Below, in pieces: positions 21,912 to 40,483 of a DNA stretch of 64,000 bases. This DNA is from a virus, in the IMG/VR virus record IMGVR_UViG_3300029309_000006, positions 1-64,000 of that record; one strand, given 5' to 3'. Below the pieces are notes generated by a model that was not told where the DNA came from, did not search any database, and was given only the letters and a program-made list of their open reading frames with translations. Position 1 is the stretch's first letter, and every line of letters begins with the position of its first letter. A program made the translations under genes and the position numbers.

Positions 21912-21913
21912 AC

Positions 21914-21939
21914 AAAATAAATAATAAAATACGATATAT
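21914..21939 (+). promoter_or_regulatory. Unit A late-promoter motif copy 3
   Basis: AAAAT-N13-CGATATAT before the ATG at 21944. Confidence 0.7.
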
Positions 21940-21943
21940 AATT

Positions 21944-23566
21944 ATGAAGATAGTAGAATTAATTTTAGATGACAACGAAGATTTAGCAGGAATAGAAGCT
22001 ATAAGCATTGTTGAAAATCCTGCAATAGAAGAAGACTTTGTAGCATTAAAGAATGAACAGGTTATACAACTTGCAGAAGTTGACAAAGAAAAGAAAATAC
22101 TATTAGGTGCTTTACTTGTACCCAATAAACCTATATATAGAAAAAATGCACAGGAAGAATATTATATATATTTTTCTAGGGAAACTGTAAGAAAAGCATC
22201 ACAGGTATATTTACAAAAAGGAAATCAAAACAATTCTACCTTAGAACACAAACATACATTATCAGGTCTTTCGCTAGTAGAATCTTGGATTGTAGAAGAC
22301 CCTAAAAAAGATAAAATAGCTTTATATGGTTTAGACTACCCAGTTGGTACTTGGGTAGGTGCTGTCAAAGTAAACAACGATAAAATTTGGGATGAATATG
22401 TAAAGACAGGCAAAGTAAAAGGGTTTAGTATTGAAGGATATTTTGCTGACAAAGCAGATAGACCACAAGACCAAACAATAAACGACCTTGCAGAAATAGA
22501 AGAAGAAGAAGCACAAGAACTTTTATCACAAGTAAAAGGAATAATAAGAAACGATAAAAGGTATAAACAAGGCAGAAGACTTATATTTGAGAGTTTTAGC
22601 GATTACCCTAATGCAGTAAAGAACAATGCAAAAAGAGGTATTGAATTAAACGACAAAGTAAACAATAAGTGTGCAACAGATGTTGGTAAAATAAGAGCAC
22701 AGCAGTTAGCAAATGGTAGACCTATAAGCGAACAAACAATAAAAAGGATGTATTCTTTTCTATCAAGAGCAGAGGAGTTTTATAACCCTGACAATAAAGA
22801 AGCGTGTGGAACTATATCATATTTACTTTGGGGAGGTCTAGCTGCAAAAAGATATGCAGAAAGTAAACTAAAAGAATTAGGTAAATTTAATTTCTTTAGT
22901 CAAAAAGTAAATGATGATTTTGCTATAATTAATGATAGGCTAGGATATGCAACAAGAGCAATGGCTGAAAAGATTGCAAAAGACATAGGTTGTAATGGTA
23001 TTCATACACACGATTTTGAAGATCAAATATGGTATATGCCTTGCGAGAAACACGCTTTAAATGAAGAAGAATTTAAAAAGTATAAATGTCCAAAAGGATA
23101 TTATAAAGATTATCAAAAACATAAGTGTGTAAAAAAAAAAGATAACTATGCAGAGATAGGAGAAAGAGGAGGTATAAGAAAAAGCCCAAAAGCTCCAAAG
23201 TCAGGAACACCAAATCCAAACCCTAAAGGACAAGGTACAGCAAAAGGAGATGCAAGTACAAGCAGGGGTGCAAAAGTATCACAAAAAGATTTAGCATCAT
23301 TACAGAAAAAGTCTGATGACTTTAACGAAAGGTATAAAAGCAAACTAGGATATGGTGTAACAGTAGGACAATTAAAGGCAGTATTTCAAAGGGGTCTCGG
23401 TGCTTTTAACGTATCACACAGTCCAAGAATACAATCTCCTACAGCTTGGGCACAAGCACGAGTAAATGCCTATTTATATTTAGTTAGAAACGGAAGACCT
23501 CAGAACCCTAAATACACAGGTGACTTTGATCTTCTACCAAAAGGACACCCAAAAAGTAATAAATGA
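21944..23566 (+). CDS. Prohead protease (XkdF-like) with extra C-terminal domains
   Basis: AISIVENPAIE, TLEH, VESW, GTW, VKGFSIEG. Confidence 0.8.
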   Translation: MKIVELILDDNEDLAGIEAISIVENPAIEEDFVALKNEQVIQLAEVDKEKKILLGALLVPNKPIYRKNAQEEYYIYFSRETVRKASQVYLQKGNQNNSTLEHKHTLSGLSLVESWIVEDPKKDKIALYGLDYPVGTWVGAVKVNNDKIWDEYVKTGKVKGFSIEGYFADKADRPQDQTINDLAEIEEEEAQELLSQVKGIIRNDKRYKQGRRLIFESFSDYPNAVKNNAKRGIELNDKVNNKCATDVGKIRAQQLANGRPISEQTIKRMYSFLSRAEEFYNPDNKEACGTISYLLWGGLAAKRYAESKLKELGKFNFFSQKVNDDFAIINDRLGYATRAMAEKIAKDIGCNGIHTHDFEDQIWYMPCEKHALNEEEFKKYKCPKGYYKDYQKHKCVKKKDNYAEIGERGGIRKSPKAPKSGTPNPNPKGQGTAKGDASTSRGAKVSQKDLASLQKKSDDFNERYKSKLGYGVTVGQLKAVFQRGLGAFNVSHSPRIQSPTAWAQARVNAYLYLVRNGRPQNPKYTGDFDLLPKGHPKSNK

Positions 23567-23712
23567 TAAACAGAGACTACATACCAAGCTATTCAAGCCC
23601 AAAAGGTGGGCGTAGGGCGTGTTTATGCAAAGATGAACTAACTTATAAAATAGAATGTTGTACAGGCGAATTACACGCTCAAGGCATAGGAAATATTACA
23701 AGAATAACCTAA
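23563..23712 (+). CDS. Small Cys-rich protein (49 aa, not in ORF track)
   Basis: SPKGGRRACLCKD...ECCTGELHAQGIG. Confidence 0.6.
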   Translation: MINRDYIPSYSSPKGGRRACLCKDELTYKIECCTGELHAQGIGNITRIT

Positions 23713-23718
23713 AAATGC

Positions 23719-23744
23719 AAAATTAATTTTAAAATCCGATATAT
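23719..23744 (+). promoter_or_regulatory. Unit A late-promoter motif copy 4
   Basis: AAAAT-N13-CGATATAT before the ATG at 23749. Confidence 0.7.
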
Positions 23745-23748
23745 TATT

Positions 23749-24339
23749 ATGAAAGCTACAGAAATGTTAAATCAAGTAAAAAATCTATTAGGAGTAGAGC
23801 TGACTGACATACAGTTGGCAGAACTCAAATTACAAAACGGAACAGTGATAGAAGCTGAAAGTTTTGAAACAGGTAAAGAAGTTTTTATTAAAACTGAAGA
23901 TGAAAATGTTGCACTTCCAGTTGGAGAATACGAACTAGAAGATAATCAAATCTTAGTTGTTGAAGAAGAAGGTGTTATTAAAGAAATTAAAGCACAAGAA
24001 GAAAAAGAAGATGAAGAAGAAGACAAAGAAGAAATGAGATATGTAACTAGAGAGGAGTTCAGAAAAGAAATGGACGAACTAAAAGATATGGTACAAAAGA
24101 TGATGAAGCCTGAAGACAAAGAAGAAATGTCAGCAGAAGAAGTGTCTTTAGCTGTAACAGAAGTTTTAAATAAAGAAGCAGAAGAAAAAGAAATTCTAAA
24201 AGAAGAATTATCTAAACCTGCATCTGAACCTATTAAACATAATCCAGAGCAAGAAAAAACTGTGAACAGATTTAAGTTTGCTCAAAACAGAAATAAATCT
24301 ACTCTAGACAGAGTAATGGAAACTTTAAGTAATAAATAA
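23749..24339 (+). CDS. Head scaffolding protein (putative)
   Basis: Acidic and helical; lies between the protease and MCP. Confidence 0.6.
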   Translation: MKATEMLNQVKNLLGVELTDIQLAELKLQNGTVIEAESFETGKEVFIKTEDENVALPVGEYELEDNQILVVEEEGVIKEIKAQEEKEDEEEDKEEMRYVTREEFRKEMDELKDMVQKMMKPEDKEEMSAEEVSLAVTEVLNKEAEEKEILKEELSKPASEPIKHNPEQEKTVNRFKFAQNRNKSTLDRVMETLSNK

Positions 24340-24358
24340 ATAAATAAAAATAATAATT

Positions 24359-24775
24359 ATGGCAGTATTAACTCACGTTAGTGACGATGTAATGAGAATT
24401 TTCGATGATTACGAAACAGTAACAGCATCAGGCTCACTAAGTCTTGCAGATTCAGGAAAAGTATTTAAGATTTCTGGAACTGGATATACATTAACATTAC
24501 CTGCACCTACAGCAGGTTGGAAAGCAAAGTTTATTGTATCAGCAGCATTTTCAACTGATTTCGTTGTACAAACACCTGCAGATAACAGAGATGTTATGAA
24601 TGGTGGAGTGATTGTTAACGGAGCAATCGTTGAAGCAGATGCAGTAGATAGAGTAACATTTGAAGATGACGCTGAAAGCATTGGCGATCACATTGAAATT
24701 CATTCTGATGGTACAAACTACTATTTGAGTGGAAACGGAAATGCAGCATCTTCTATAACAGTTGGAGAATTATAA
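24359..24775 (+). CDS. Capsid decoration-like protein
   Basis: ADSGK...LTLPAP...GD..I.SDGTNYY beta-rich pattern; directly upstream of the MCP. Confidence 0.45.
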   Translation: MAVLTHVSDDVMRIFDDYETVTASGSLSLADSGKVFKISGTGYTLTLPAPTAGWKAKFIVSAAFSTDFVVQTPADNRDVMNGGVIVNGAIVEADAVDRVTFEDDAESIGDHIEIHSDGTNYYLSGNGNAASSITVGEL

Positions 24776-24799
24776 TAATTAAATAAATAAAAAAAAGAT

Positions 24800-25696
24800 A
24801 TGGCTACTACTACTTCAATTACTACTTCTTACCAAGGGGAATTTGCAGGTGATTACATCGCTGCAGCACTTCTTTCAGGGGTGACTTTATCACAAGGAGG
24901 AGTAACAATAAAACCAAATATTAAATTTAAAGAGGTTTTGAAAAAACTCTCAATGGATTCAATTCTAAAGGATGCTTCCTGTGACTTTGACCCATCGAGT
25001 AACGTAACTTTAACTGAAAGGATTCTACAACCAGAAGAATTTCAAGTTAACTTACAATTATGTAAAAAAGATTTCAGACAAGATTGGGAAGCTAACTCAA
25101 TGGGATTCAGTCAATATGACAATCTACCGAGTAAGTTTTCAGACTTTTTAATTGCACAAGTTGCAGCTAAAGTTGCTGAAAAAGTAGAACAAAACATTTG
25201 GCAGGGTGCTACTGCAAATGCAGGAGAATTTAACGGATTCCAAGCATTACTTGCAGCAGACGGAGACGTTGTTGATGTTTCAGGTACTACACTTTCGGCT
25301 TCAAACATCGTTGCTGAGATTTCAAAAGTTGTTGATGCAATTCCTAGCGGGGTCTATAATAAAGAAGATTTAAAAATCTATATTCCTACAAGTGCTGCTA
25401 AGTTTTATATTCAAGCACAAGCAGCTTTAGGTTATAGAGAACTATATAACGTAGGTAAAACTGAAATGAATTTCCAAGGTATTCCATTATTTACTGCACC
25501 TGGATTAGGAGCAGATAAAATGGTTGCAGCACAATCAAGCAATCTTTACTTCGGTACAGGTCTATTAAATGACTGGCAAGAAGTTAAGCTTATTGATATG
25601 GCTGATATTGACGGAAGTCAAAATGTAAGAGTTGTACTAAGAGGATCTGCAGGTGTAAATCACGGAATAGGTGCAGATATAGTACTTTATTCTTAA
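24800..25696 (+). CDS. Major capsid protein (unit A)
   Basis: Highly biased codon use; YQGEFAG, LTERILQP, NLYFGT; followed by a terminator. Confidence 0.75.
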   Translation: MATTTSITTSYQGEFAGDYIAAALLSGVTLSQGGVTIKPNIKFKEVLKKLSMDSILKDASCDFDPSSNVTLTERILQPEEFQVNLQLCKKDFRQDWEANSMGFSQYDNLPSKFSDFLIAQVAAKVAEKVEQNIWQGATANAGEFNGFQALLAADGDVVDVSGTTLSASNIVAEISKVVDAIPSGVYNKEDLKIYIPTSAAKFYIQAQAALGYRELYNVGKTEMNFQGIPLFTAPGLGADKMVAAQSSNLYFGTGLLNDWQEVKLIDMADIDGSQNVRVVLRGSAGVNHGIGADIVLYS

Positions 25697-25710
25697 TAAT
25701 TGTTTAACAT

Positions 25711-25748
25711 AAAAGGGTAGGTGGGTTTTACCTACTTACCTTTTTTTT
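25711..25748 (+). terminator. Rho-independent terminator
   Basis: GGTAGGTGGG-TTTTA-CCTACTTACC plus T-run. Confidence 0.8.
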
Positions 25749-25762
25749 AAAAATATATATAT

Positions 25763-26287
25763 ATGGCGTGTACACTTACAAAAGGGCGTGAACTACCTTG
25801 CAAATCAGGGGTTGGTGGAATAAAAAGTATAACATTTGCTGACTTTAATACTTTAGGAGCTTTAACTGTTGCAAATGACATAATTACTGATTTCGGTGGA
25901 AGTCCTACATTTATGAAGTTTGATGTAAAGGGTAATTCTACAATGGACACTACTGTAACATCATCAAGAGAAAACGGAACTACTTTTTATGAAACAACAG
26001 TAGTAATGAATTTAATCTTCCAAGAGGAAAAAACACAAGCAGAAATTAAATTACTTGCTGTTTCAAGACCTCATATTATAGTAGAAGATTATAACGGAAA
26101 CTTTAGACTTGTTGGAAAAGATCACGGATGCGAATTAACAACTGGGACATTTTCAAATGGAGCTGCGATGGGAGACCTTTATGGCTACTCACTTACATTT
26201 GTTTCACAAGAAACAGAAGCACCTGACTTTGTTGCTACAGCAGCTTACAATGCTGAAAGTCAAGGAACACAAATTGACGTAAATTAA
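25763..26287 (+). CDS. Major tail (tube) protein
   Basis: MAC.LT.GR..PC...VGGI, SRENGTTFY, GYSLTF. Confidence 0.65.
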   Translation: MACTLTKGRELPCKSGVGGIKSITFADFNTLGALTVANDIITDFGGSPTFMKFDVKGNSTMDTTVTSSRENGTTFYETTVVMNLIFQEEKTQAEIKLLAVSRPHIIVEDYNGNFRLVGKDHGCELTTGTFSNGAAMGDLYGYSLTFVSQETEAPDFVATAAYNAESQGTQIDVN

Positions 26288-26310
26288 GAATAGTTTGTTC
26301 TTGTTATTGG

Positions 26311-26340
26311 AAAAGGGGGTTTTATACCTCCTTTTTTTTT
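26311..26340 (+). terminator. Rho-independent terminator
   Basis: AAAAGGGGGT-TTTAT-ACCTCCTTTT plus T-run. Confidence 0.75.
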
Positions 26341-26350
26341 GCTTTATTAC

Positions 26351-26376
26351 AAAATCACTATATTATTTCGATATAT
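26351..26376 (+). promoter_or_regulatory. Unit A late-promoter motif copy 5
   Basis: AAAAT-N13-CGATATAT before the ATG at 26381. Confidence 0.7.
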
Positions 26377-26380
26377 TAAT

Positions 26381-26746
26381 ATGAAAGTATTGACTACAAG
26401 TAGTTCAGCACAAACTTTAGATGTAGTTCCTAGAACTTATATTTCTAGCTATACAATGAAACTTAGAGATACAAGCAAAAATAAAGAAGTATTTAGTTCA
26501 TCTGTAACTGGAATTACAAATGGTAATTTTAAAAGAATATCTGCAACTATAAGCCCTATATTAAAAGAGGGTAGGTATTATGATTTAACTTTACTAAATG
26601 GAGCTACAGTAGTATATAGAGATAAAATATTTTGCACAGATCAAACTATAAATCAGAACAACAATGATTATTACGAAATAAATTCAGGTCAATATACTTT
26701 TGATGAAACAGCAGGGTCACACGATAACGATTATATAATAGTATGA
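26381..26746 (+). CDS. Structural protein (hypothetical)
   Basis: Probable ATG start at 26381 within ORF 26339..26746. Confidence 0.55.
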   Translation: MKVLTTSSSAQTLDVVPRTYISSYTMKLRDTSKNKEVFSSSVTGITNGNFKRISATISPILKEGRYYDLTLLNGATVVYRDKIFCTDQTINQNNNDYYEINSGQYTFDETAGSHDNDYIIV

Positions 26747-28482
26747 ACGATTTAAGAGTTTTAAATTTAAGCAGTTACACAACACCAAAAGTAACAGAAC
26801 AAAAAAATAGAGATTGGATTGGGTATGGAGAGGATAACAATTACTTTAAATATCTAATTGACAGATACAACGGAAGTCCTACCAATAACGCTATTATAAA
26901 CGCTGTTTCTGCGATGATCTATGGTAAAGGATTAGATGCTACCGATTCAAATAAAAAGCCTGAACAGTACGCTAAAATGGTTTCTTTGTTTAACAAGGAC
27001 TGCACAAGAAAACTTTGTTACGATTTAAAACTTATGGGTCAATGTTCAATGCAAGTAATATATTCAAAGGATAGAAAAACAATAGCACAGATAGAACACT
27101 TTCCTGTAGAAACATTAAGAGCAGAAAAAGCAAATGAAAAAGGAGATATAGAAGCTTATTATTATTTTTCAGATTGGTCTAATTTTAAATCTACAAGTAA
27201 AGCAAAAAGAATACCTGCTTTTGGAATGAGTAAGGAATCTATAGAAATACTTTATGTTAAACCTTATAGAGCAGGATTTTATTATTATAGTCCAGTAGAC
27301 TACCAAGGTGGCTTACAATATAGCGAACTAGAAGAAGAAGTAGGAAACTTCCATTTAAATAATATTATGAATGGTATGTCTCCAAGTATGTTAATTAATT
27401 TTAACAATGGTACACCAACAGAAGAAGAAAGAGAAAGAATAGAACATCGTATAATGCAAAAGTTTTCAGGCAGTAGTAATGCAGGTAAATTTATATTAGC
27501 ATTTAACGACAATGCAGATACAGCAGCAAGTATAGACCCAGTACAATTATCAGATGCACACCAACAATATCAGTTTCTAAGTGAAGAAAGTACAAGAAAG
27601 ATAATGGTATCTCACAGAATTGTATCTCCAATGCTTATAGGTATTAAAGATCAATCAGGACTTGGAAACAATGCTGATGAATTAAAAACAGCATCTATAT
27701 TACTTGACAATACAGTTATTAGACCTTTTCAGCATTTGCTTATAGAAGCATTTGACCAAATATTAGCTTATAATAAAATATCGCTTAACCTATACTTTAA
27801 AACTTTACAACCATTAGAATTTACAGACCTAACAAATGTAGAAGATGAAGAAACTAAAGAAGAAGAAACAGGTGTAAAATTAAGTGAAGATGTATGTAAT
27901 CATAATCATTTTAATTTAAGCGAAGATGAAATGACTACAATAGCAGATGATATTATTTCAAAAGGAGAAGATATAGGGGATGATTGGGAGTTGTTAAATG
28001 AAACACCTGCTCTAAATGATGAAACTGAAATAAAAGATTATTTTGAGTTTGCAAGGGTTGTAAGTGGAGATGCAAGAAAAAAAGACGAACAAGACACAAG
28101 TCTATTTAGAATAAGGTATAAATATACAGCAGGAAGATCAACCAAAGGAGAATCTAGGGAATTTTGTAAAAAAATGTTAGCTGCAAATAAAGTTTACAGA
28201 ATGGAAGATTTAGATAAACAAAGTACAGCAAATAGTGAACTTGCAGCAAAAGGCGAAAACAGCTACAATATCTGGCTTTTTAAGGGCGGAGTGAACTGCT
28301 CCCATTATTGGATGCGACAAATATATCTTAAAAAAGGTAACAAAAAAATATCAGTAGGCAGAGCAAGAAGTATAATAAGTGCTTTACCTAGAAACGAAAG
28401 AAAAGATGCAAGGTTTGAAACAAACCCACCTGAGGTTTCTCAAATAGCATCAGCAAGAAATAATTATTGGAGAAAAAATTAA
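26743..28482 (+). CDS. Portal protein with C-terminal MuF-like extension
   Basis: YGEDNNY, SPTNNAII, GSSNAGK, LGNNADE; C-terminal FKGGVNCSHYW. Confidence 0.7.
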   Translation: MNDLRVLNLSSYTTPKVTEQKNRDWIGYGEDNNYFKYLIDRYNGSPTNNAIINAVSAMIYGKGLDATDSNKKPEQYAKMVSLFNKDCTRKLCYDLKLMGQCSMQVIYSKDRKTIAQIEHFPVETLRAEKANEKGDIEAYYYFSDWSNFKSTSKAKRIPAFGMSKESIEILYVKPYRAGFYYYSPVDYQGGLQYSELEEEVGNFHLNNIMNGMSPSMLINFNNGTPTEEERERIEHRIMQKFSGSSNAGKFILAFNDNADTAASIDPVQLSDAHQQYQFLSEESTRKIMVSHRIVSPMLIGIKDQSGLGNNADELKTASILLDNTVIRPFQHLLIEAFDQILAYNKISLNLYFKTLQPLEFTDLTNVEDEETKEEETGVKLSEDVCNHNHFNLSEDEMTTIADDIISKGEDIGDDWELLNETPALNDETEIKDYFEFARVVSGDARKKDEQDTSLFRIRYKYTAGRSTKGESREFCKKMLAANKVYRMEDLDKQSTANSELAAKGENSYNIWLFKGGVNCSHYWMRQIYLKKGNKKISVGRARSIISALPRNERKDARFETNPPEVSQIASARNNYWRKN

Positions 28483-28483
28483 A

Positions 28484-28993
28484 ATGGCAACAGCATTATT
28501 CATAAAACCGATTGACTTAAAAAGAAACTCTATAATAGACGGAAACGTAGATGTTGACCACTTCCTTGGCTTTCTAAAGATCGCACAGGAAATTCACATT
28601 AGAAACTATCTAGGAACGGATTTATACAATAAAATAAGCACAGACATAATTGGTACTGGTGGAGCATCGCTAACAGGTAATTATTTAAACCTTGTAAACG
28701 ACTATATACAGCCTATGCTTATACACTTTGCTATGGTTGATTATTTGCCTTTTGCAAGTTACAGGCTTAAAAATGGTGGACTTAGTAAACCAACAAGTGA
28801 AAACAGCGAATCTGTTACAAAAGAAGAAGTGGACTATTTAGTACAAAAACACAGAAATATAGCAGAATATTATACAACAAGATTTATAGACTATATGAGT
28901 TTTAATCAAAGTTTATTTCCTGAGTATAATACTAATACAAATGATGATATTCATCCTGATAAAGATGCTCTATTCAATGGTTGGGTATTATGA
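28484..28993 (+). CDS. Head-tail adaptor protein
   Basis: AQEIHIRNYLGTDLY, FPEY; downstream of the portal gene. Confidence 0.6.
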   Translation: MATALFIKPIDLKRNSIIDGNVDVDHFLGFLKIAQEIHIRNYLGTDLYNKISTDIIGTGGASLTGNYLNLVNDYIQPMLIHFAMVDYLPFASYRLKNGGLSKPTSENSESVTKEEVDYLVQKHRNIAEYYTTRFIDYMSFNQSLFPEYNTNTNDDIHPDKDALFNGWVL

Positions 28994-29047
28994 AGTATAA
29001 AGTAAAGAAAAAAAATATTGACAAATTATTAACATATTTAAAGAGTA

Positions 29048-32000
29048 ATGGCAACATTAACAAACACACAAATATCGGTAACGTATGTAGGGTTATTAAA
29101 GACAAGTGCTAGTACAGTACTAAGTTCTACTGCTCAACAAATTACTGATGGTTCAGGCAATAATAGTATTTTATTTCTATCTACAGCAGGAGTTGGAATA
29201 GGTGGTGCTGCTAGTGCAGGTAAAGAATTTGAAGTTACAGGTAACGCTAAAATTACAGGAGACCTTATAGTAGATAACATAAAGATAGATGCCAATACTA
29301 TTTCTGCTGAAACTGGTGTTGTTACTCTAGCAGATGGTGCTATTGCTACAACTCAAAGTGCAAGTGATAATTCTACTAAAATTGCTACGACTGCATATGT
29401 AGATGCTCAGGTTACTGCTCAGGACTTAGATTTTAGTGGTACATCAGGCACAGGTTCAGTTGATTTAGATTCTCAAACATTTGCTGTAGTAGGTACTGCT
29501 AATGAAATTGAAACATCTGCAGGTAGCCAACAGTTACAAATAGGACTTCCCAATGATGTGACAATAAGTAATAAATTAACTGTTAATACTAACTTAGAAA
29601 TAGAAGATAATCACATTAACCAAACGACTGGTCAACTTAAAATAGAATCAGCAGATAGTATAGTATTAGATGCTACTGGTGATATTGTTTTTAAAGATAA
29701 TAATCAACAGTTTGCAAAGTTTGTAAACACTAATGGTATTTTATCAATTGAATCTACCCTAAAAAAACAAGCAAGTTTTGCTGACACAGGAGTTGAATTA
29801 TATGCAAATGATGTTAAAAAATTAGAAACCGAAGATGCAGGAGTTACAATAATTGGTGCTTTAAATGTTGATAGTGTGACTTCTACAGGTGGTGCAACTT
29901 TTGGAGGAACAGTAACTACTTCACAAATAACTAGCAGTGGTAATTTTACTATTGATTCAGCATTACAAATTATACTTGATGGTGCTGATGATGGTTCAAT
30001 ACAATTAAAAGATGATGGCACTCTATATGGTCTTATATATTCAACTTCAGATGACTTTTATATTAAATCAACAGTTTCTGATGGAGATATTATTTTTCAG
30101 GGTAATGATGGGGGTGTAGGTAAAACAGTTTTAACGTTGGATATGTCTGAAAATGGCAATGCAACTTTTGCAGGTGAGGTAAAATTGCAGTCAAGTAATG
30201 CTTTTACAACATTAAGAACTGGTAATGATTTTGGTTGGAGTATATATGCTAATTCAAGTAATTTTTTAACTTTTGGAACTGGAGCAGCAGCTAATACAAA
30301 AGCAACAGATTGGGTGACCATTCGAGATGACCTAGGTTACGTAGGCATAAATGAAACGAGCCCTAGCAATAAATTACAAATTTCAGATAGTACAGTAGGA
30401 ACAGATTCAACAGCAGATGATAGCAATTTTATAAAATTAACAAACAAAGATATTGGAACAGCAAATGAGGTATGGGGTTTAGGTTTTTCTAGCAAATCAG
30501 GTGCAACTGATTACTTAGGTGCCTTTGTTCAAGCGTTAGGCAATTTCACTAGTAACTTCAACACTTCTTTAATATTTGGAACTAGAGGAACCTCAGGGAA
30601 TGCCACCGAAAGAATGCGAATTAACAGTTCTGGAAAAGTAGGAATCGGAGAAACAGCACCTGCCGCTAAACTAGATGTTAAAGTTGCTTCAAATGAACAT
30701 TTTTTAGTTAGTGATTCTTTATCTACTGTATCATTAAAAGCTACTAATGATGCCGCTGCTGCTTACGTTCCAATGTCAATTAATGGTTCAGCTTTAACTA
30801 TAAATGCTGATTCTGGTGGAAACGTCGGGATTGGAACTGCTTCGCCTGGTTATAGACTTTCAGTAGCTAATGCATCAACTAGAATTGTATCAATAAATTA
30901 TCAAGATAGTATAAATACAATTATGTCTCATGCGGGTTCACCTAATTATGGTTTAGAAGCATTAACTATTAGAGGAGATTATATAGCTTTTTATACAGAT
31001 TATGACGTTAGTCATTATCAAGGTGTTGAAAGAATGCGTATAACATCTGCAGGACAAGTTAATATACATCCTATAAACGATACAAGTGAGACACTTAGAG
31101 TTTTTAGAGGTACTGGTGCATTTGCTTCTCAATCAATTTCTATTGATGCAAAAAGTGGTGATGCAAATATTAGATTACTTGCAACTGATACTGCAAGGTC
31201 AACTGTATTTTATAGGTCATCAGATGGAGGTAGTAATTTTACAGAAAGTATGCGTATAGGCAGTAATGGAAATATTGCTCAAGCAAATACAAGTCCAATA
31301 GCTGACCCTTTTGTCAATGGTGCAGAACAATGGATGACTTACCAAATTGGAAAAGCAGGAGTATTAGGTGCATACAAAAATAATAATGAAAGTATGTTTG
31401 GTTTTAATACATATTTTTCAGCACCAAGTGGAGTAAATAAAGCAATAGTTTCTGGTTTAGATGGAACTGCAACAAGATATTATGCTGATAGAATTACATT
31501 TAATACTTTAACAAGTTCTGGAACTACTCAAACGCAAACAGAAAGAATGCGTATTACATCTGGGGGTAACATTAACATAGGTTCTGGTGGTTTAACACAA
31601 ACTGCATATCAATTAAGAGTAGATTCTGATTTTGATAATGGTATTTATTTGAGTGCAGCTTCAGGAAACGATAGTGCATTGTATATTGATAATGGAGCTG
31701 GAACTGCAGAATTATTTATAGTTAGAGGAGATGGAAATATAAAAATACCTGGAATTGGTGTTACTACTGGTGCTACTGCTGTTGGAGTAGATTCAAGTGG
31801 TTTTATTAGAAAGTTATCATCATCAAAAAGATATAAAAAAGATATTGAGTCAATTGATATAGGTTTAGATTTTATAAATTCTTTAAGTCCAGTTAAGTTT
31901 AAAATGAAAGAAGATGATGTTGAAAGTGTTGGATTAATTGCTGAAGATATGATTGACAATAGGTTTGTTACATATTCACAAATTGATATGAAAGATGAAT

Positions 32001-32107
32001 CTAAAGGTTTGCAAGTCGAGGGGGTTAATTATCAAGCACTAATAGCACCATTAATTAAATCAATCCAAGAACTAAAAGCAGAAATAGAATTATTGAAAAG
32101 TAAATAA
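29048..32107 (+). CDS. Tail fibre with S74-like chaperone (spans the A/B junction)
   Basis: DNSTKIATTAYV, ERMRI/GNVGIG repeats, SSKRYKKDI, GLIAED, coiled coil. Confidence 0.88.
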   Translation: MATLTNTQISVTYVGLLKTSASTVLSSTAQQITDGSGNNSILFLSTAGVGIGGAASAGKEFEVTGNAKITGDLIVDNIKIDANTISAETGVVTLADGAIATTQSASDNSTKIATTAYVDAQVTAQDLDFSGTSGTGSVDLDSQTFAVVGTANEIETSAGSQQLQIGLPNDVTISNKLTVNTNLEIEDNHINQTTGQLKIESADSIVLDATGDIVFKDNNQQFAKFVNTNGILSIESTLKKQASFADTGVELYANDVKKLETEDAGVTIIGALNVDSVTSTGGATFGGTVTTSQITSSGNFTIDSALQIILDGADDGSIQLKDDGTLYGLIYSTSDDFYIKSTVSDGDIIFQGNDGGVGKTVLTLDMSENGNATFAGEVKLQSSNAFTTLRTGNDFGWSIYANSSNFLTFGTGAAANTKATDWVTIRDDLGYVGINETSPSNKLQISDSTVGTDSTADDSNFIKLTNKDIGTANEVWGLGFSSKSGATDYLGAFVQALGNFTSNFNTSLIFGTRGTSGNATERMRINSSGKVGIGETAPAAKLDVKVASNEHFLVSDSLSTVSLKATNDAAAAYVPMSINGSALTINADSGGNVGIGTASPGYRLSVANASTRIVSINYQDSINTIMSHAGSPNYGLEALTIRGDYIAFYTDYDVSHYQGVERMRITSAGQVNIHPINDTSETLRVFRGTGAFASQSISIDAKSGDANIRLLATDTARSTVFYRSSDGGSNFTESMRIGSNGNIAQANTSPIADPFVNGAEQWMTYQIGKAGVLGAYKNNNESMFGFNTYFSAPSGVNKAIVSGLDGTATRYYADRITFNTLTSSGTTQTQTERMRITSGGNINIGSGGLTQTAYQLRVDSDFDNGIYLSAASGNDSALYIDNGAGTAELFIVRGDGNIKIPGIGVTTGATAVGVDSSGFIRKLSSSKRYKKDIESIDIGLDFINSLSPVKFKMKEDDVESVGLIAEDMIDNRFVTYSQIDMKDESKGLQVEGVNYQALIAPLIKSIQELKAEIELLKSK
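30327..30616 (+). repeat. Direct repeat copy 2 (tail-fibre module)
   Basis: 284/290 identical to 1-290. Identity ends at GAAAGAATG (ERM motif). Confidence 0.97.
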
Positions 32108-34522
32108 ATGGCAAATTTATCTAATATTAATGATTTATTTGAGGTTGAAAGTACTGGTGCTATTAAATTCAGTAATCAATCAGGTACTTCTGGGCAAGTA
32201 TTAAAATCAAATGGTAATGCAGCTCCAACGTGGGTAAATGCTTCAACTGTTATAGGTGGACCATATTTACCTTTAACAGGTGGTACGCTTACAGGTAATT
32301 TAGCAATAAACGGTTCTAATAGTTTAACAGTTGGTGGAGCTTTATCAGGAAGCACTGCAACCTTTTCAGGTAACGTAGGAATTGGAGTTGCTGCTCATGG
32401 TACCGCTTCTTTAAATATTACAAACGCCAATCAACATATACGATTAAATAATGGCTCAGAACTTGGAGTTATATCTCTTTTATCAACTGGTGAATTAGAT
32501 ATTTGGGGACATGGCACTAATGAAACAATTAATTTTAGAACTGGAACTGGAAGTGGTACTGTTGCTTTAGATATAACTGGAGTTAACTCAACTTTTGCAG
32601 GAAACGTAGGAATAGGTCGTTCTCCAGTGGCTTATGGTTCTTTTAAGGTTTTAAATTTAGCAGGTTCTTCAGGTGCAATACAAAAATTAATACACACAGG
32701 AAATACTGTTGAATTACAATCTTTTGCATCAGCTTCAGTTGGCGCTATTGGTACAGCGACAAATCATTCTTTATTGTTAACAACAGGTGACGTAACTGCT
32801 TTAACCATAGATACACATCAACAGATTTCATTAAACGGAGTAGGTGGAAGTGATGGATTCACTGTGCCTTTTTACAATGACCCAGGCTACAGTAATATGA
32901 CAGCAGGTGGGTTTGGCATATTGTTTAGAAATAATTATGATTCTTATGTAACCAATAATGCTTATTATGTTGCCGATCCTGGTGGACAATGGAGATCAAA
33001 ATACACCACTAGAGCTGCAAGTGTTTTATCAATGCTAGATGGTAAATTTGGCTTTTCTACCGCAGCTGCAAATACAACTTCTCCTTATGGGCTTGCTTTT
33101 AGTGAGGTCATGACTATTTTACAAAACGGAAACGTAGGAATTGGAACTACTAACCCTATATTATATAGTAGTGGGTGGGGAAAAGCTTTGGGAATAAAAG
33201 CAGCAAGCGGATATGCCGTAATACAAGTTGCTGGTAGTAATGGAAATGGAGGAGAGGTAGACTTAGGAGATGCTTCTATACGTCACGCTGCTATTGCTTC
33301 TTTAACTGGCTCTAAATTGGCATTTTATACTAACGGTTCAAATTCTGGGTCTACTGTCTTACAAAGAATGACTATTGACGGTTCTGGAAAAGTAGGAATC
33401 GGAACGGCTTCGCCTGTGGCTAAATTTCATGTATCAGGTGATACTGGCGGTACTGATTCAATAGCAAGATTTCAAAACACAAATTCAGCTAAAGTTACAA
33501 AAATACAATTATTAGATAGTTCAGGTACTGTAGGAGATGCTCTTATAGCGTACGATCATTCAAATGCAAGTTCAGGTTTACATTATTTAGGAATGGGTGT
33601 TAATAATATCACAACTTTAGTTATAAACAATAATGACAATGTAGGAATCGGGACGACTTCACCTAATAAAAAATTAACAGTATATGGCGGTAATGATAAT
33701 GGTATATGGATAGATAGTCAAGGTGCTCAATATACTTCATTAGCTTTTGGTAACAATGGAACTGAAAAAGCTAATATAGCGTGGGATAATACCAATGGAT
33801 ATACTAATATAAGCACTTATTCAAATGGTCATTTAGCTATGTCTACAGGTGGTTCAATAAATGCATTTCTTAACTCTAGTGGTAATTTTGGAATAGGGCT
33901 TACAATTCCTAGTGCTAAATTACATGTTCAAGGAAAAGTAAAAATTAATAGTGCTACAGCACCTGCAGGTAATGCAGAATTAAACATAGGCTACGTAGGT
34001 GGCGGAGAAACTAGGTCAATAGATATACATGGTGGCTGGACTGGAAATGAAAGTAAATCAATAACTTTTACACACGGTACTTCGCTTGCTGACATAGTTG
34101 GTCAAATTAATGTTCAACATACTAGTCCAGGTTCTAGAATAAGATGGGGAAAATTATTCCATAGTGGTAATTCTAGCACTTATACAATGACATTGACATC
34201 AACATCAACAACAACAGCAGATCTAACTGTCGCGGGCAATATAACTGCTTCAGCCGATGTAGTAGCTTATTCTGATAAACGATTAAAATCAAATATAAAA
34301 ACACTTGACGGGTCAAAAGTATTAAAAATGCGTGGTGTGTCATTTGATAAAGAAGGCCAAAAAGGTAGTGGGGTTATAGCTCAAGAGTTAGAAAAAATTG
34401 CACCTGAGTTAGTAAATAATGATAATGAATATAAAGGAGTTGCATATGGTAATTTAACTGGTTATCTTATTGAAGCTATAAAAGAATTAGAAGCTAGAGT
34501 AAAAGAATTAGAAAACAAATAA
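32108..34522 (+). CDS. Tail fibre with S74-like chaperone
   Basis: YLPLTGGTLTG, multiple GNVGIGTT.P, SDKRLKSNI, GVIAQE. Confidence 0.88.
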   Translation: MANLSNINDLFEVESTGAIKFSNQSGTSGQVLKSNGNAAPTWVNASTVIGGPYLPLTGGTLTGNLAINGSNSLTVGGALSGSTATFSGNVGIGVAAHGTASLNITNANQHIRLNNGSELGVISLLSTGELDIWGHGTNETINFRTGTGSGTVALDITGVNSTFAGNVGIGRSPVAYGSFKVLNLAGSSGAIQKLIHTGNTVELQSFASASVGAIGTATNHSLLLTTGDVTALTIDTHQQISLNGVGGSDGFTVPFYNDPGYSNMTAGGFGILFRNNYDSYVTNNAYYVADPGGQWRSKYTTRAASVLSMLDGKFGFSTAAANTTSPYGLAFSEVMTILQNGNVGIGTTNPILYSSGWGKALGIKAASGYAVIQVAGSNGNGGEVDLGDASIRHAAIASLTGSKLAFYTNGSNSGSTVLQRMTIDGSGKVGIGTASPVAKFHVSGDTGGTDSIARFQNTNSAKVTKIQLLDSSGTVGDALIAYDHSNASSGLHYLGMGVNNITTLVINNNDNVGIGTTSPNKKLTVYGGNDNGIWIDSQGAQYTSLAFGNNGTEKANIAWDNTNGYTNISTYSNGHLAMSTGGSINAFLNSSGNFGIGLTIPSAKLHVQGKVKINSATAPAGNAELNIGYVGGGETRSIDIHGGWTGNESKSITFTHGTSLADIVGQINVQHTSPGSRIRWGKLFHSGNSSTYTMTLTSTSTTTADLTVAGNITASADVVAYSDKRLKSNIKTLDGSKVLKMRGVSFDKEGQKGSGVIAQELEKIAPELVNNDNEYKGVAYGNLTGYLIEAIKELEARVKELENK

Positions 34523-34523
34523 T

Positions 34524-36848
34524 ATGGCATTATTACATGAAATAAATAACGGATCAGAAAGATTTTCAGTAGACGAAGTAGGAGCAGTAAAAATAAACAA
34601 TGCTTTTACTTTACCCACTGTAGCAGGTGTAAATGGTTATGTGTTAACATCAAATGGTTCTGGTGCTTCTGCTTGGCAAGCATCTACAGGAGGAGTTGGT
34701 GGCGCTGGTACTGGTCAAAAAGTAGCAAAGTTTGCTGGAACAGGTACTTCATCTACTCTAGGAGATGGCCCAATAACTTTTTCAACTAATGATTCAGCTT
34801 TTGCAGGTGCAATAGCAACATCTGGTAATATAACAGCTACTGCATCGAACGCTACAATTTCAGCTGCTGAAAGCGGTGGTGCTACAACAAAAATAATGGG
34901 TGCTAGTGTGGGTAGAGTTGGTACATCTAGTAATCATAACCTTGAAATTTTATCAAATAACACAGCAGCAATAACCATAGACACTTCACAAAACGCAACT
35001 TTTGCAGGGAATATTTCAACAACAGGTGATATAAATATTAACGGGGGAACGAGTTACAATGATAAAAGTAATCTTTATCTGTCTAATGGTAGGACTTTAA
35101 TACAATCTGATATTGTAAATGCAACCGCTAACGGTGACACAAGTTTAGATTTTCAAACAAGAAGCGCAGGTTCATTAGCTTCAGCTATGTTTATTGATGA
35201 ATTTAGAAAAATAGGAATCGGAACTACTTCGCCTGATTGGGCTTTAGATATTGAAGCTGTAAGCACTGGAGTTCAATTGCAAATAGGTAGAACTACTACT
35301 AGTGCAGGCTCTACTTGGATGGGTTCTGATTCAAATGGCTTTCATTTAGGCGTTGGGGCGTATGGTGGTGGAAACTCTGTTTCTGATCCTAATGGTTTTA
35401 CTGTAGATACTTCTGGAAACGTTGGAATTAAAACAACTCCTAGTACTAGGCTACATGTGTCTGGAAGTTTTGATCCTGATGATGCACTGGGATATGCTTT
35501 AATCGAAAACACTAGTACAGCTGGCGCATCTGCTGAAAACTCAGCTATTAATGTTAAAAATTATCGTGGCACTTCTCAATTTATGCAGTGGGAAGGAAAT
35601 GGATTAAGGATTGGTAGTAGAATTTTAACTAATAGCGGCGTAGGTGATGTTTATTTTACAGCTGGAGCAGATAGTGTTAAAATGGTTGTAAAAGCTGGCG
35701 GAAACGTAGGAATCGGAACCACAAACCCTAATTTTAAACTTCACTTAGCAAGTACTGGTGCTGATACTCTTTTACGACTTGAAAATACTACTACTAATAG
35801 ATACCCTAATCTAAGATTCACAGCGGCAGGTGCAGAATATGACATAGGTGTTGGAGGTACTGGAACAGCAACAGGGTATGTACATAATTTTTATATTTAC
35901 GACATAACTAATTCTGCGCCTCGTATTACTTTAACTCAAGCAGGAAACGTAGGAATAGGAACAACTGTGCCTAACGCTAGGTTAGAAGTTTTAACCTCTA
36001 CTGCAGGGTTTAGCAGTATTATTAGAAACACAAACGCAAATAATGACTCTAATGGGTTATTAGTTAAAGCTGGTACTCAAGGTACTGAATATGCTCTTAA
36101 AGTTAGTAACACTAATGATACTCAAAACTTTATGTCTATAAAAGGAAGTGGAAACGTAGGAATTGGAACAACTTCACCTTCTTCTACTTTTCAAATTGGT
36201 GGTGGAACTGCTAATGTTTTACAAAAAATACATGGTAGTGGAACAGCTGGTATTCAAATATTTACAAATTCACCCTCTACTGGTACTAAAATAGCCTCTT
36301 TAGAACAATATTTTTCAAACGAAGGGTTTTTAGGGTTGTATTATAATGGTAGTCAAACAGTTAGATTTAGAGCAAATGGCAAATCTTTTATTAATGGAGG
36401 GTTTGTAGGAATCGGAACAACAAATCCTTATTATGAGTTAGAAGTTCAAGGGCAAGGATATTTTAGCTCACATTTATATGCACACTGTTTAGGTGTTGGA
36501 GCAGCTACACCAAATTCTTTAGGAGTTATCAGAGCAGCTGGAGATGTTATTGCATATTATTCATCAGACAAAAGGTTAAAAGATAATATTGTAAAAATAG
36601 AAAAGCCTTTAGAAAAGCTTGATAAAATTAACGGATATGAGTTTGATTGGAATAACAAACAAGAGCTTTATAAAGGACATGACATAGGAGTTGTTGCTCA
36701 AGAAGTAGAACAAGTATATCCAGAACTAGTAGAGACTCGCAAAAGTGGATATAAAGCTGTTAAATATGAAAAATTAGTACCTTTACTTGTAGAAAGTATA
36801 AAAGAATTAAAAACTGAAATAGAACAACTTAAAAAACAAATTAAATAA
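34524..36848 (+). CDS. Tail fibre with S74-like chaperone
   Basis: Multiple GNVGIGTT.P, SDKRLKDNI, GVVAQE. Confidence 0.88.
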   Translation: MALLHEINNGSERFSVDEVGAVKINNAFTLPTVAGVNGYVLTSNGSGASAWQASTGGVGGAGTGQKVAKFAGTGTSSTLGDGPITFSTNDSAFAGAIATSGNITATASNATISAAESGGATTKIMGASVGRVGTSSNHNLEILSNNTAAITIDTSQNATFAGNISTTGDININGGTSYNDKSNLYLSNGRTLIQSDIVNATANGDTSLDFQTRSAGSLASAMFIDEFRKIGIGTTSPDWALDIEAVSTGVQLQIGRTTTSAGSTWMGSDSNGFHLGVGAYGGGNSVSDPNGFTVDTSGNVGIKTTPSTRLHVSGSFDPDDALGYALIENTSTAGASAENSAINVKNYRGTSQFMQWEGNGLRIGSRILTNSGVGDVYFTAGADSVKMVVKAGGNVGIGTTNPNFKLHLASTGADTLLRLENTTTNRYPNLRFTAAGAEYDIGVGGTGTATGYVHNFYIYDITNSAPRITLTQAGNVGIGTTVPNARLEVLTSTAGFSSIIRNTNANNDSNGLLVKAGTQGTEYALKVSNTNDTQNFMSIKGSGNVGIGTTSPSSTFQIGGGTANVLQKIHGSGTAGIQIFTNSPSTGTKIASLEQYFSNEGFLGLYYNGSQTVRFRANGKSFINGGFVGIGTTNPYYELEVQGQGYFSSHLYAHCLGVGAATPNSLGVIRAAGDVIAYYSSDKRLKDNIVKIEKPLEKLDKINGYEFDWNNKQELYKGHDIGVVAQEVEQVYPELVETRKSGYKAVKYEKLVPLLVESIKELKTEIEQLKKQIK

Positions 36849-37333
36849 TGGCATTACCAAGTTCAGGACAAATAAGTGCAAGTCAAATAAACGCAGAGGT
36901 ACCGGGTAGATCAGCTACAGCTCAAGCTCCTTTGTCTGGAACTAGCTCTACTCCACAAGCAGGGTCATTAGTAAAGTTATACGCTACAGCTTCACCACCT
37001 GTAAATCAATCAGCTCCACACGCGTATTCTGAGTTTTATGGAAGAAGCTTTGTGTCTTTAACAAGTTTTTTAGTTGGAGCGGGTATAGTAGAAAGTGGTA
37101 ATACTGCGTGTAGTACACTAGGTTCTTCTTTTACATATTATCATGACGGAAGTGGAACTTATCCTGCTGTAGGAGATAAAGTGTATACTAATTCTAGTGG
37201 AACAACTCCGGCATCAGGAGGCACAGGAACAAACTATGCTGTATTTGCAGCTGGACCACCAGCACCACCAGTTAGATATTTTAGACTAACAGGAAGTACA
37301 GGAACTGTACAAGCAACAAGTACATGTCCTTAA
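36848..37333 (+). CDS. Fibre-tip/adhesin-like protein
   Basis: MALPSSGQIS...SEFYG N-terminus; C-domain shared with the end of 58364..62389. Confidence 0.55.
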   Translation: MALPSSGQISASQINAEVPGRSATAQAPLSGTSSTPQAGSLVKLYATASPPVNQSAPHAYSEFYGRSFVSLTSFLVGAGIVESGNTACSTLGSSFTYYHDGSGTYPAVGDKVYTNSSGTTPASGGTGTNYAVFAAGPPAPPVRYFRLTGSTGTVQATSTCP

Positions 37334-37356
37334 TTAATAAATTAAAACAATAAAAA

Positions 37357-37713
37357 ATGGCAATAACTTATAAATGGATAATTAACCAAATGAACGCACA
37401 TATCCAAGCCGAAGGCGAAGATAATGTAATATATACAGTACACTGGACTTATTTAGGTTCTGAAGAACACGAAGGTAAAACATACAGCGCTTCACAAATA
37501 GGTGCGCAAGGTTTTACTTATGTAGCTGGAGAACCTTTTGTACCATATGCTGATACAGAAGATTTTGAAAAAGTAGTAATAGGATGGCTTGAAGATGTTT
37601 TAGATGTACCAGCAATGGCTAAGTCTCTAGAAGATAATATTAAACTACAAATTACACCTGTAAATGAAGATTTATACTTTACATGGCAAAATCCAACACC
37701 ACCAGCAGAATAG
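37357..37713 (+). CDS. Tail-fibre-associated protein
   Basis: Homologous to 2363..2686. Confidence 0.6.
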   Translation: MAITYKWIINQMNAHIQAEGEDNVIYTVHWTYLGSEEHEGKTYSASQIGAQGFTYVAGEPFVPYADTEDFEKVVIGWLEDVLDVPAMAKSLEDNIKLQITPVNEDLYFTWQNPTPPAE

Positions 37714-37714
37714 T

Positions 37715-37749
37715 GTAAGTTTTTAAAAAAACAAGTGATACTATAATAT
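37715..37749 (+). promoter_or_regulatory. Unit B promoter-like motif GTAAGT-N14-GTGATA
   Basis: Second copy with the same spacing at 62375-62400. Confidence 0.5.
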
Positions 37750-37806
37750 AACCTATATTGCTTTGCAATATAACCAAAATATGTTTAACCTTTAAAACCA
37801 ATAAAA

Positions 37807-38115
37807 ATGACTTATTTTTATTATAAAACCAACACTTGGGGTAACTCCGACCAACAAGTGTCCGAAGATACCAGAAATACCTGGGAATTTTTTGCTAAAA
37901 AGAAAAACTGGAGAATTGTACAACTTCCTAATGGTTATTATCAAACAGAGTGTCAAAGCTTAACTGCTGATAACAAACCTAGTGGTGAATGGACTGATAT
38001 TACTAGAAGAGAAACTATTGAAGCAGCCGAAGCTGCAATCGACGCTAGTATTGAACATTATCAAAAACGTTTAGAATACGCTAAAGGTCCTAAAGTTGTA
38101 AAAACATTTAAATAA
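37807..38115 (+). CDS. Hypothetical protein
   Basis: NWRIVQLPNGYYQTE, TRRETIE; upstream of groEL. Confidence 0.65.
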   Translation: MTYFYYKTNTWGNSDQQVSEDTRNTWEFFAKKKNWRIVQLPNGYYQTECQSLTADNKPSGEWTDITRRETIEAAEAAIDASIEHYQKRLEYAKGPKVVKTFK

Positions 38116-38137
38116 TCAAATAAAATTAAATCAAATT

Positions 38138-39697
38138 ATGTCAAACGCGATTGTTAAAAATCTGAACTTTGGTTCGGATGCTAGAGACAAAGTGTTTGCC
38201 GGTATTACAAAACTTACACAAGCTGTTAGCTCCACATTAGGAGCTAGCGGTAAGTGTGTTATGCTTGAAAACAATACTGGTAAACCTATTATAACCAAAG
38301 ATGGAGTTACTGTAGCTGAGTCAATAACGTTGTTAGATCCTGTAGAAAACATGGGCGCAACGTTACTAAAAGAAGCAGCTAGCAAAACAGTAAAAGAAGC
38401 TGGAGATGGTACTACAACAGCAACAGTACTAGCTCATGCTATTTTAAAAGAAGCTTATAGTTTACATGTAGAAGAAGATGTAAGAACAATAAAAGAAGGT
38501 ATAAAAAAAGCAACTAAAAACGTAATAAAATATTTAGAATCAATATCTATACCTGTAGATGGTGATATGATAGATCAAGTTGCAACTATATCAACAAATA
38601 ATGATGCTAAGCTTGGAAAAATAATAGCTGATGCTTTTAGAGCAGCTGGTAATAACGGAGTCGTTATGTTAGAGCCAACTGACTTACCTCAAACCACGTA
38701 TGAACTGATTGACGGAGTTCCTTATGAAAGAGGTTTAAAAAATATACATTTTGTAACTAATCAAGATAAAAAAACTTCTGAACTAGATAAACCTTTGGTT
38801 TTGTTAGTTGAATCAGAAGTTGAAAATGTAAGAAAAATACAAAGTGTTTTAGAGTATGCTATAAAGCATAATAGATCTTTGCTTATTATAGCAGATGTAG
38901 ACAAACAAGTAATGTCTGCTTTAGCTATGAATAAAATAAAAGGTAATATAAAAGTAAATGTAATTGATGCACCTATTTATGGTGTAAGTAAAAAAGAAAC
39001 ATTAGATGATTTAGCTTTACTTACGGGTGCAACTATTATAAATGAGGATTTAGGAGACGATATAGATTTAATTGGGCCTGAACATTTAGGTGAGTGTTTA
39101 AAAAGTGTTACAGATCAAAACGAAACTATATTACAACTAGAAAAAACCTCAGATGCTGTAAAAGAAGTAATCGCTGAGCTAGAAATAAAACTAACTAAAA
39201 CTAAAGATCCTAATATGGTTATTAAGTTAGAAAAAAGATTAGCTAGGTTATCGGCAAAAGTAGCCATTGTTAAAGTTGGTGCAAATTCAGAAGTAGAATT
39301 AAAAGAAAAACAAGCTAGAGTTGAAGATGCTATATGCGCTACCAAAGCTGCTATAAAACAAGGTATTGTTTCAGGCGGTGGTATTGCTCTTTTAAATGCA
39401 GTTGAAAATGTGTCAGCTTCTTCACCAGGAGAAGAAATATTATTAAGAGCTATAGAAGCTCCATTTAATACTATTTTACAAAATGCAGGTATTCATGAAT
39501 CAAGAGTTAATGCTGCAGCTGGAGAAGGATTAGACGTGGTTACAGGACAAAATGTAAATATGATAGAGCAAGGTATTGTAGATCCTTTGCTTGTTACAAA
39601 AAGTGCTTTACAAAATGCTTCATCAGTAGCAACTACAATATTATCTACTGATTGTGTTATTAACAATTTAAGAGTTGGTGATGAAAGCAATAGGTAA
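38138..39697 (+). CDS. groEL: Phage chaperonin GroEL
   Basis: ITKDGVTVA, AGDGTTTATVLA, GIVSGGGIAL, GIVDP; no GGM tail. Confidence 0.97.
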   Translation: MSNAIVKNLNFGSDARDKVFAGITKLTQAVSSTLGASGKCVMLENNTGKPIITKDGVTVAESITLLDPVENMGATLLKEAASKTVKEAGDGTTTATVLAHAILKEAYSLHVEEDVRTIKEGIKKATKNVIKYLESISIPVDGDMIDQVATISTNNDAKLGKIIADAFRAAGNNGVVMLEPTDLPQTTYELIDGVPYERGLKNIHFVTNQDKKTSELDKPLVLLVESEVENVRKIQSVLEYAIKHNRSLLIIADVDKQVMSALAMNKIKGNIKVNVIDAPIYGVSKKETLDDLALLTGATIINEDLGDDIDLIGPEHLGECLKSVTDQNETILQLEKTSDAVKEVIAELEIKLTKTKDPNMVIKLEKRLARLSAKVAIVKVGANSEVELKEKQARVEDAICATKAAIKQGIVSGGGIALLNAVENVSASSPGEEILLRAIEAPFNTILQNAGIHESRVNAAAGEGLDVVTGQNVNMIEQGIVDPLLVTKSALQNASSVATTILSTDCVINNLRVGDESNR

Positions 39698-39941
39698 AAA
39701 CTTAGTAGTTAGTTTAGTAAAACAAGGTATTGCTAAAACTAAAGGTGGTTTGTTATTAGGAGAAAAACAAAGAGAAGATACAAGATACACAGAAGGTGTT
39801 GTAGTGTCTGTAGGTAATGATGTTGTTGGAATAAAAGCAAACGATGTTATTTATTTTGATAAAAATAATGCACACCAAATAGAAGTTAAAAAAGAAATAT
39901 ACACTGTTGTTAATATGAGTAGTGTAGTTATTGTGTTGTGA
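39681..39941 (+). CDS. groES: Co-chaperonin GroES
   Basis: KTKGGLLL, GVVVSVG; adjacent to groEL. Confidence 0.88.
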   Translation: MKAIGKNLVVSLVKQGIAKTKGGLLLGEKQREDTRYTEGVVVSVGNDVVGIKANDVIYFDKNNAHQIEVKKEIYTVVNMSSVVIVL

Positions 39942-40399
39942 GAATAGAGCCAAGTGACATTAGAAAGTTAAACTTATTAAAACATTATAGGGTTATACGA
40001 AAATGGGCTTGTAAAAATCACAACTTAAATGATGCAGATTTAGAACTACTTATTTATTTAGACTGTATAGAATTATTTACTAAGCACGATTTTAAAATCG
40101 GTACTTATGCTTATAGCTGGGACAACAGGCGCTGGAACAGATTACTTAAAGAAGGTTGGATAACGGTTTGGAGAATTAGAAACAGGACAACCCAAAAGTA
40201 TAATATCTATAAAGTTTCATTTAAGTGTAAACAGCTAATAAGTAGAATGTACCGTATTATGCTTGGTAAAGAAGATATACCTACAAGCACTCATAGAAAT
40301 AAAATAATGAAAGGTAAAACTTATATGGACAAGGTTTTGCAAACATCGATTAAACATGCTAACAAAGATAAAAACAATAATTATGGCAAAAAAATCTAA
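39938..40399 (+). CDS. Hypothetical protein, possible winged HTH
   Basis: LNDADLELLIYL...RLLKEGWI. Confidence 0.45.
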   Translation: MRIEPSDIRKLNLLKHYRVIRKWACKNHNLNDADLELLIYLDCIELFTKHDFKIGTYAYSWDNRRWNRLLKEGWITVWRIRNRTTQKYNIYKVSFKCKQLISRMYRIMLGKEDIPTSTHRNKIMKGKTYMDKVLQTSIKHANKDKNNNYGKKI

Positions 40400-40483
40400 A
40401 AAAGAAGAAGTAAAAGAAGTTTCTTCTATCGACAAAAAAATAGCTAAACTAGAAGCAGTTATAAAAAAGCTAAAAGCTAAAAA

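Follow-up and report, generated by a model that had tools for sequence, protein, structure and literature searches.

The 95,752-bp IMG/VR virus record IMGVR_UViG_3300029309_000006 is very probably an inter-genome assembly chimera of two phages, here called A and B, which were misjoined in a fibre segment that they share. The join between A and B is an artefact and the shared fibre module alone is real biology. The window analysed here is a stretch of 64,000 nucleotides, bases 1-64000 of the record, and its base 1 is therefore also a contig end. Genome A (30,326 bp) comes first in the record and is followed by the genome B part (65,426 bp). The record, which is classed as linear, is a single gap-free contig free of Ns and has a CheckV completeness of 100%, a figure that in this 95.7-kb record does not test concatenation. 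An earlier note, made from the DNA letters of the window, had left two explanations standing: a real Campbell-type cointegrate, or misassembly through an identical stretch. The misassembly half of that alternative holds up, while the cointegrate (phage inside phage) does not. The choice between them is based on the bases at the left end, the missing part of the B fibre, the lack of the hybrid join in relatives and other assemblies, and a step in depth. The coordinates of the relevant features are collected in Table 1.

The case bears on database hygiene, as a publicly available virus record with a completeness rating of 100% in all likelihood holds two genomes. If used unsplit, the record would distort analyses of genome size, taxonomy, host prediction and gene sharing. 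It also supplies a hybrid fibre protein which is found nowhere else.

Table 1. Features of genomes A and B in the window (positions are those of the record).
Feature	Position	Strand	Remarks
Genome A	1..30326	+	complete, circularly closed, ~30.3 kb, siphovirus-like; opened inside the fibre gene in the record
A-specific bases	1..14	+	code ..DLGY; duplicate 30327-30340; precede module copy 1
A fibre, C-terminal 785 aa	3..2360	+	ORF open at the 5' end (record start)
Shared module copy 1, A allele	15..290	+	~92-aa unit between two GxVGI-type linkers
A large terminase (TerL)	12662..13828	+	phrog_2, E 2e-40; 81% identical in G010
A portal	26743..28482	+	phrog_33693, E 8e-126
A fibre N-terminal, A-specific, virion-proximal part	29048..30340	+	depth follows A
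Hybrid ORF (A head, module, B tip)	29048..32107	+	1019 aa; artefact of the misjoin
Genome B	30341..64000	+	podovirus-like, ~65.7 kb when whole; continues to record base 95752
Shared module copy 2, B allele	30341..30616	+	first 153 nt (30341-30493) identical to copy 1; misjoin site
B fibre distal, B-specific part	30617..32107	+	identical to P0002 residues 352-845
B large terminase (TerL)	47749..49971	+	phrog_6681, E 8e-164
B portal	49968..52349	+	phrog_6547, E 2e-148
B head protein	53591..55045		PHROGs; head proteins from 53591

Separate relatives of genomes A and B

The earlier note had recognised two non-homologous sets of packaging and head genes in the window. PHROGs agrees, placing the TerL and portal proteins of A and B in different families. 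Among the relatives of the A portal in IMG/VR, none of the best 80 of 588 confirmed ones is on a contig longer than 33.7 kb. Five relatives of A, 29.5-33.7 kb in size, have CheckV completeness of 91-100%, and an A-type TerL is present in each.

Several of these relatives also bear on the closed 30,326-bp genome which the earlier note had proposed for A, and they confirm it by running through the join of 30326 to 1 unbroken. Three close relatives, L006, L007, and L008, come from different samples and are 82-90% identical at the nucleotide level; in these the homologues of 22-29.3 kb are followed by the fibre gene and then by the homologues of 2304-8359 without interruption. In the contig G010 (29,453 bp) the circle is opened elsewhere, at about 14-17 kb of A, and the join lies in the interior of the contig. 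Of the cultured phages, Nonlabens (Persicivirga) P12024S and P12024L (35.7 kb) come closest to A, with a portal that is 36% identical across 97% of its length, a distant kinship from which no genus or family membership is claimed. They resemble A in their small genome, and their host belongs to Flavobacteriaceae.

The longest contigs with relatives of the B TerL are of 64.5, 65.8, and 68.9 kb. G001 (64,532 bp) and G002 (65,842 bp) have 127-nt direct terminal repeats, are rated 100% complete, and are collinear with the record from 32 to 95.7 kb. Both are without A genes; the one gene with a counterpart in A encodes the endolysin, and B has a copy of its own. In G001 the fibre genes lie about 6 kb from the homologues of 90.6 kb, and this gap leaves no space for a 30-kb insert. 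Among cultured phages, the closest to B are the Flavobacterium phages vB_FspP_elemo (~60 kb) and the podoviruses of Cellulophaga, Tenacibaculum, and Maribacter. They have a similar genome size and gene order, and their identity to the B TerL (45% over 95% of the protein) marks a distant kinship. The nearest record of all is an uncultured Caudoviricetes genome of 60.9 kb (64% identity).

By analogy with the cultured relatives of both phages, A and B may have a common host in Flavobacteriaceae. The two phages are found together in the same samples, with marine Flavobacteriaceae as their likely hosts.

Fibre genes and the repeat at the join

The fibre as written in the record was read in the earlier note as having an A-type N-terminus and a B-type C-terminus, which comparison with the true fibres of A (P0004) and B (P0002) bears out. 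In a search among ~15 billion proteins the hybrid (P0001) formed a group of 1 member on 1 contig, which is the source record itself. When 29048..30326 is instead joined to 1..2360, a single open frame of exactly 1212 aa results; the earlier note had given an in-frame fibre of about that length. This closed A fibre has 0 differences over 1212 aa to the public protein P0004 (1212 aa; JGI and ENA; 6 contigs). The A fibre has therefore been assembled elsewhere as one gene.

The true B fibre, P0002, is 845 aa long and is found in ENA on 4 contigs, the longest of 64,589 bp. In order, it has the B head, ~110 residues that are missing from the record, the module, and the B tip. At the 3' end of the record, the open ORF (95313-95752) is identical to the first 146 aa of P0002 (146/146), and there the B fibre gene breaks off ~330 nt short of the module. 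These ~330 nt (~110 codons, P0002 residues 148-257) are the part of the B fibre that the record lacks. Between P0002 and residues 432-1019 of the hybrid there are four differences, all of which are in the module, and in each of them P0002 has the residue of the A copy. The distal parts of the two fibres differ, with 20-44% identity between the A and B tips, and the B distal part contains a C-terminal Peptidase_S74 intramolecular chaperone domain (PF13884 match). A further protein, P0003, is a mosaic: its head, module allele, and tip are of the B type, and its middle is A-like but diverged (64-82% identity). Related-locus searches with P0004 and P0002 returned diverged fibres only. Exact matches to the junction of A head and module allele and to the last 30 bases of the record were absent from the viral contigs searched, as were matches to a 24-mer of the module from the metagenome contigs; these blanks carry no weight, since such searches may leave out near-identical records.

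Two smaller observations concern the same genes. The longest contig bearing P0004 is 38,484 bp, which is longer than A; it may be a wrap-around of A or a further chimera. The last 7 bases of the record (TAACTTT) were considered as an overlap with 30267-30273 and rejected as a chance match, as P0002 has ~110 codons between these points.

At the join, the 290-bp repeat described in the earlier note (30327-30616 against 1-290) and its identical stretch of 167 bp were both reproduced. Bases 1-167 have an exact copy in the second repeat, 6 differences are spread across 1-290 (97.9% identity), and identity is 95.7% when bases 1-324 are compared with 30327-30650. The true shared module starts at 15 and 30341 (VGINETSP...), as opposed to 1 and 30327 in the earlier note. 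The residues just before VGINETSP are ..DDLGY in A but ..NSSGN in the B fibres P0002 and P0003. Defined in this way, the module is 276 nt long and ~98% identical in A and B, and within it P0002 and P0004 agree exactly over 94 aa. Across the fibre genes of A and B, the GxVGI-type linker motif is found 14 times (repeat family D1).

Depth and composition across the join

Depth was taken as per-contig k-mer means from Logan contigs, in samples which contain several related strains. In run X3 the depth of A is 104-116 and that of B 18-27, and in run X1 the values are 23-26 and 16-17. In run X4 the A fibre head is at 0.04-0.5 and B at 4-7. In run X5, from a different study, the A-type phage is at 7-17 and B at ~0-3. 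The A:B depth ratio is ~4.3, ~1.4, and ~0 in three runs. A step in coverage at about 30.5 kb, which the earlier note had named, together with a lack of spanning reads, as the mark of an assembly chimera, is seen in the Logan contig k-mer depth: at the join the k-mer depth falls from 104 to 27 (X3) and from 23 to 17 (X1).

Within the module, k-mer depth roughly equals that of A plus that of B, and positions 30494-30550 show both alleles. The unitig of the A head stops at 30370 (X1 and X3) and a B-tip unitig begins at 30577, in both cases exactly 30 bases from the branch points (30340/30341 and 30607). An offset of 30 bases from a branch point is expected for Logan, where k = 31. Unitig breaks at k-1 from the module edges mean that both continuations co-exist in the samples.

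The two genomes also differ sharply in their palindromic tetranucleotides. A has no CATG against 52.8 expected, and B has 99; the first one in the record stands at 30929, shortly after the module. GGCC is found 0 times in A and 55 times in B, and GCGC 1 time in A and 50 times in B. This contrast reflects different histories of restriction-site avoidance, as in separate replicons.

Alternative explanations

A real Campbell-type cointegrate would have A inserted in the B fibre gene by homologous recombination at the module, from which it could be excised. The arrangement of two direct module copies flanking the entire A genome is compatible with this, and A/B fibre recombination does occur in nature, as seen in the B variant with A-type module residues and in the mosaic P0003. 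However, the left junction of a cointegrate should read B head, module, A tip, while the record begins with the 14 A-specific bases. The earlier note had proposed to look for supporting B-type sequence upstream of the window; the window starts at the contig end, and those first 14 bases are what stands there. All of the partner sequence should also persist in a cointegrate, but ~330 nt of the B head are lost. The depths of A and B are unequal and depend on the run, with each phage occurring almost or wholly without the other, and both gene sets together were found in none of the 160 relatives listed. A 96-kb molecule would moreover be larger than the genomes of all relatives with either type of capsid, and might for this reason be hard to package. 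We consider a cointegrate highly improbable, and we give no more credence to the hybrid fibre being genuine, as an allele in an A-type phage with an acquired B tip, and the misjoin being located further downstream. Tips have been swapped among these phages (P0003 being an example), which would make such an allele conceivable. Nevertheless, the B tip of the record is followed directly by B genes (from 32108) in the same order as in the B relatives, and the depth of the tip equals that of B and not that of the A head; X4 has the tip but lacks the A head. The hybrid protein is also on no other of the contigs behind the ~15 billion proteins searched.

That the record could come from a single phage with a genuine genome of 95.7 kb and two sets of structural genes is scarcely credible. 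Its CheckV value of 100% and its gap-free contig are what such a genome would give, but A and B have separate relatives, their true fibres are found elsewhere, and the depth steps between them. The ends of the record do not join in frame (95752 to either 1 or 30327), and the halves differ sharply in restriction-site avoidance. There is also a small chance, only slightly above negligible, that real A::B recombinants (either a cointegrate or an A-type phage with a B tip) arise at low frequency in co-infected cells and that the contig mirrors one of them by chance. If so, they would be intermediate forms in the recombination through which the module stays ~98% identical in A and B.

Probable origin of the chimera

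An assembly chimera misjoined in the module agrees with the length of the repeat. Repeats of such length are beyond short reads without spanning pairs. At 153 nt, the identical stretch surpasses the end overlaps of sister IMG/VR records (127 nt), so a de Bruijn graph with k of at most 127 would merge A and B here. The exact path that we infer would have begun in A, 14 nt before the module. The assembler would then have gone once round the A circle and back into the module, and would have left it on the B branch. From there the path would have continued through B and ended at a break inside the B fibre head.

Virome benchmarks document chimeric contigs, with more of them when the reads are shorter (PMC4247695). 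The chimeric contigs reported from viral metagenomes (PMC4247695) are similar to the present one in that a contig made of several genomes is joined at a common stretch. However, most of the reported chimeras combine closely related strains, whereas A and B are unrelated phages of different morphotype lineages, each of which is nearly whole and placed end to end with the other.

Exchange of the fibre module

The module is carried by P0002 and P0003, which have B heads, and by P0004, which has an A head, all in independent assemblies. Its presence in independent assemblies of both lineages means that the module itself is not an artefact. The same three proteins support the earlier note's view that a ~98%-identical module across morphotypes implies recent exchange. 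The sequences point to horizontal transfer of the module between a siphovirus-like and a podovirus-like phage, probably recent in view of its near-identity. This likeness would reflect recent homologous recombination during co-infection of a common host. Fibre exchange is still under way, as the allelic variants P0002 and P0003 show.

Exchange of fibre modules among unrelated phages is a known phenomenon and the module shared by A and B is a new instance of it. The fibre mosaics of the P2/Mu/lambda type, attributed to Haggard-Ljungquist et al. in 1992, are reportedly the classic case. A marine case, in which distant phages have host-recognition modules in common, is that of the Alteromonas schitovirus A5 and the myovirus V22 (PMC10579305). 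In all of these, as in A and B, a near-identical fibre segment is found amid otherwise unrelated genes, which argues for horizontal exchange within a common host range. Fibres with C-terminal intramolecular chaperone domains (PF13884) are another point of likeness. Unlike in A5/V22 and the P2/Mu/lambda type, A and B share one internal repeat unit of ~92 aa and not a whole receptor-binding module with its chaperone. The A/B pair agrees with what is known of modular fibre evolution and offers a concrete case for its study.

Outside the module, A and B have three small stretches in common, two of them at ~70% identity and one of 66 nt at 85%. An M15 endolysin and its neighbouring small genes are common to both phages, most of them ~70% identical, which fits a common host pool.

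Fibre linkers and a mosaic fibre

The D1 family of GxVGI-type linkers is built on a 49-nt motif coding ..GNVGIGT..P, with 14 copies spread over positions 288-36180 of the window. The motif is present in all four fibre genes across A (the siphovirus-like genome) and B (the podovirus-like genome), and its conservation is at the DNA level. The fibre module shared by the two genomes is bounded exactly by two D1-type linkers. P0003, a fibre protein from a 5,498-bp JGI contig, has a B head followed by the B allele of the module, an A-like middle (64-82% identity) and a B tip (100% identical). P0003 is a natural mosaic fibre, and its make-up suggests that shuffling at GxVGI linkers is real.

Genes common to A and B

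Both genomes encode an M15 peptidase endolysin (see table). Small genes near the A copy also match B at record positions 73338-74238 (3084-3722 at 71% and 4251-4315 at 85%). The counterparts of the A block 3084-4315 are divided in B between two far-apart sites, 41177-41621 and record 73338-74238.

Features of A and B, in window positions
Feature	Genome	Position	Detail
M15 peptidase endolysin	A	3771-4235	70% nucleotide identity to B copy
M15 peptidase endolysin	B	41165-41629	matching stretch 41177-41621; 70% nucleotide identity to A copy
AT-rich motif	A	14416-14472	
AT-rich motif	A	26333-26389	
Palindrome, grouped with the AT-rich motif	A	12358-12429	
GroEL-type chaperonin	B	38138-39697	PF00118, E 1e-57
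GroES-like co-chaperonin	B	46927-47532	phrog_13932

Features of the individual genomes

Tetranucleotide counts were compared between window positions 1-30326 (A) and record positions 30327-95752 (B). CATG is absent from A (53 expected) but occurs 99 times in B, GGCC is likewise absent from A (8 expected) against 55 occurrences in B, and GCGC is found once in A (9.5 expected) and 50 times in B. Restriction-site avoidance is strong and selective, and is confined to A.

Intergenic regions upstream of gene blocks in A repeatedly carry a conserved motif that is rich in AT (T-run ... ATTTCGATATAT ... ATGAAAGTA) and may act as a promoter or regulatory site.

In B, the ORF at 44255-45142 carries seven tandem 18-nt units (44939-45133) coding (K/E)DPMKM-like hexapeptides. 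A giant ORF of 2380 aa lies downstream of the structural genes, past the window (record 65813-72952).

Completeness rating

CheckV rated the chimeric 95.7-kb record as 100% complete; CheckV completeness is thus no guard against two genomes concatenated end-to-end.
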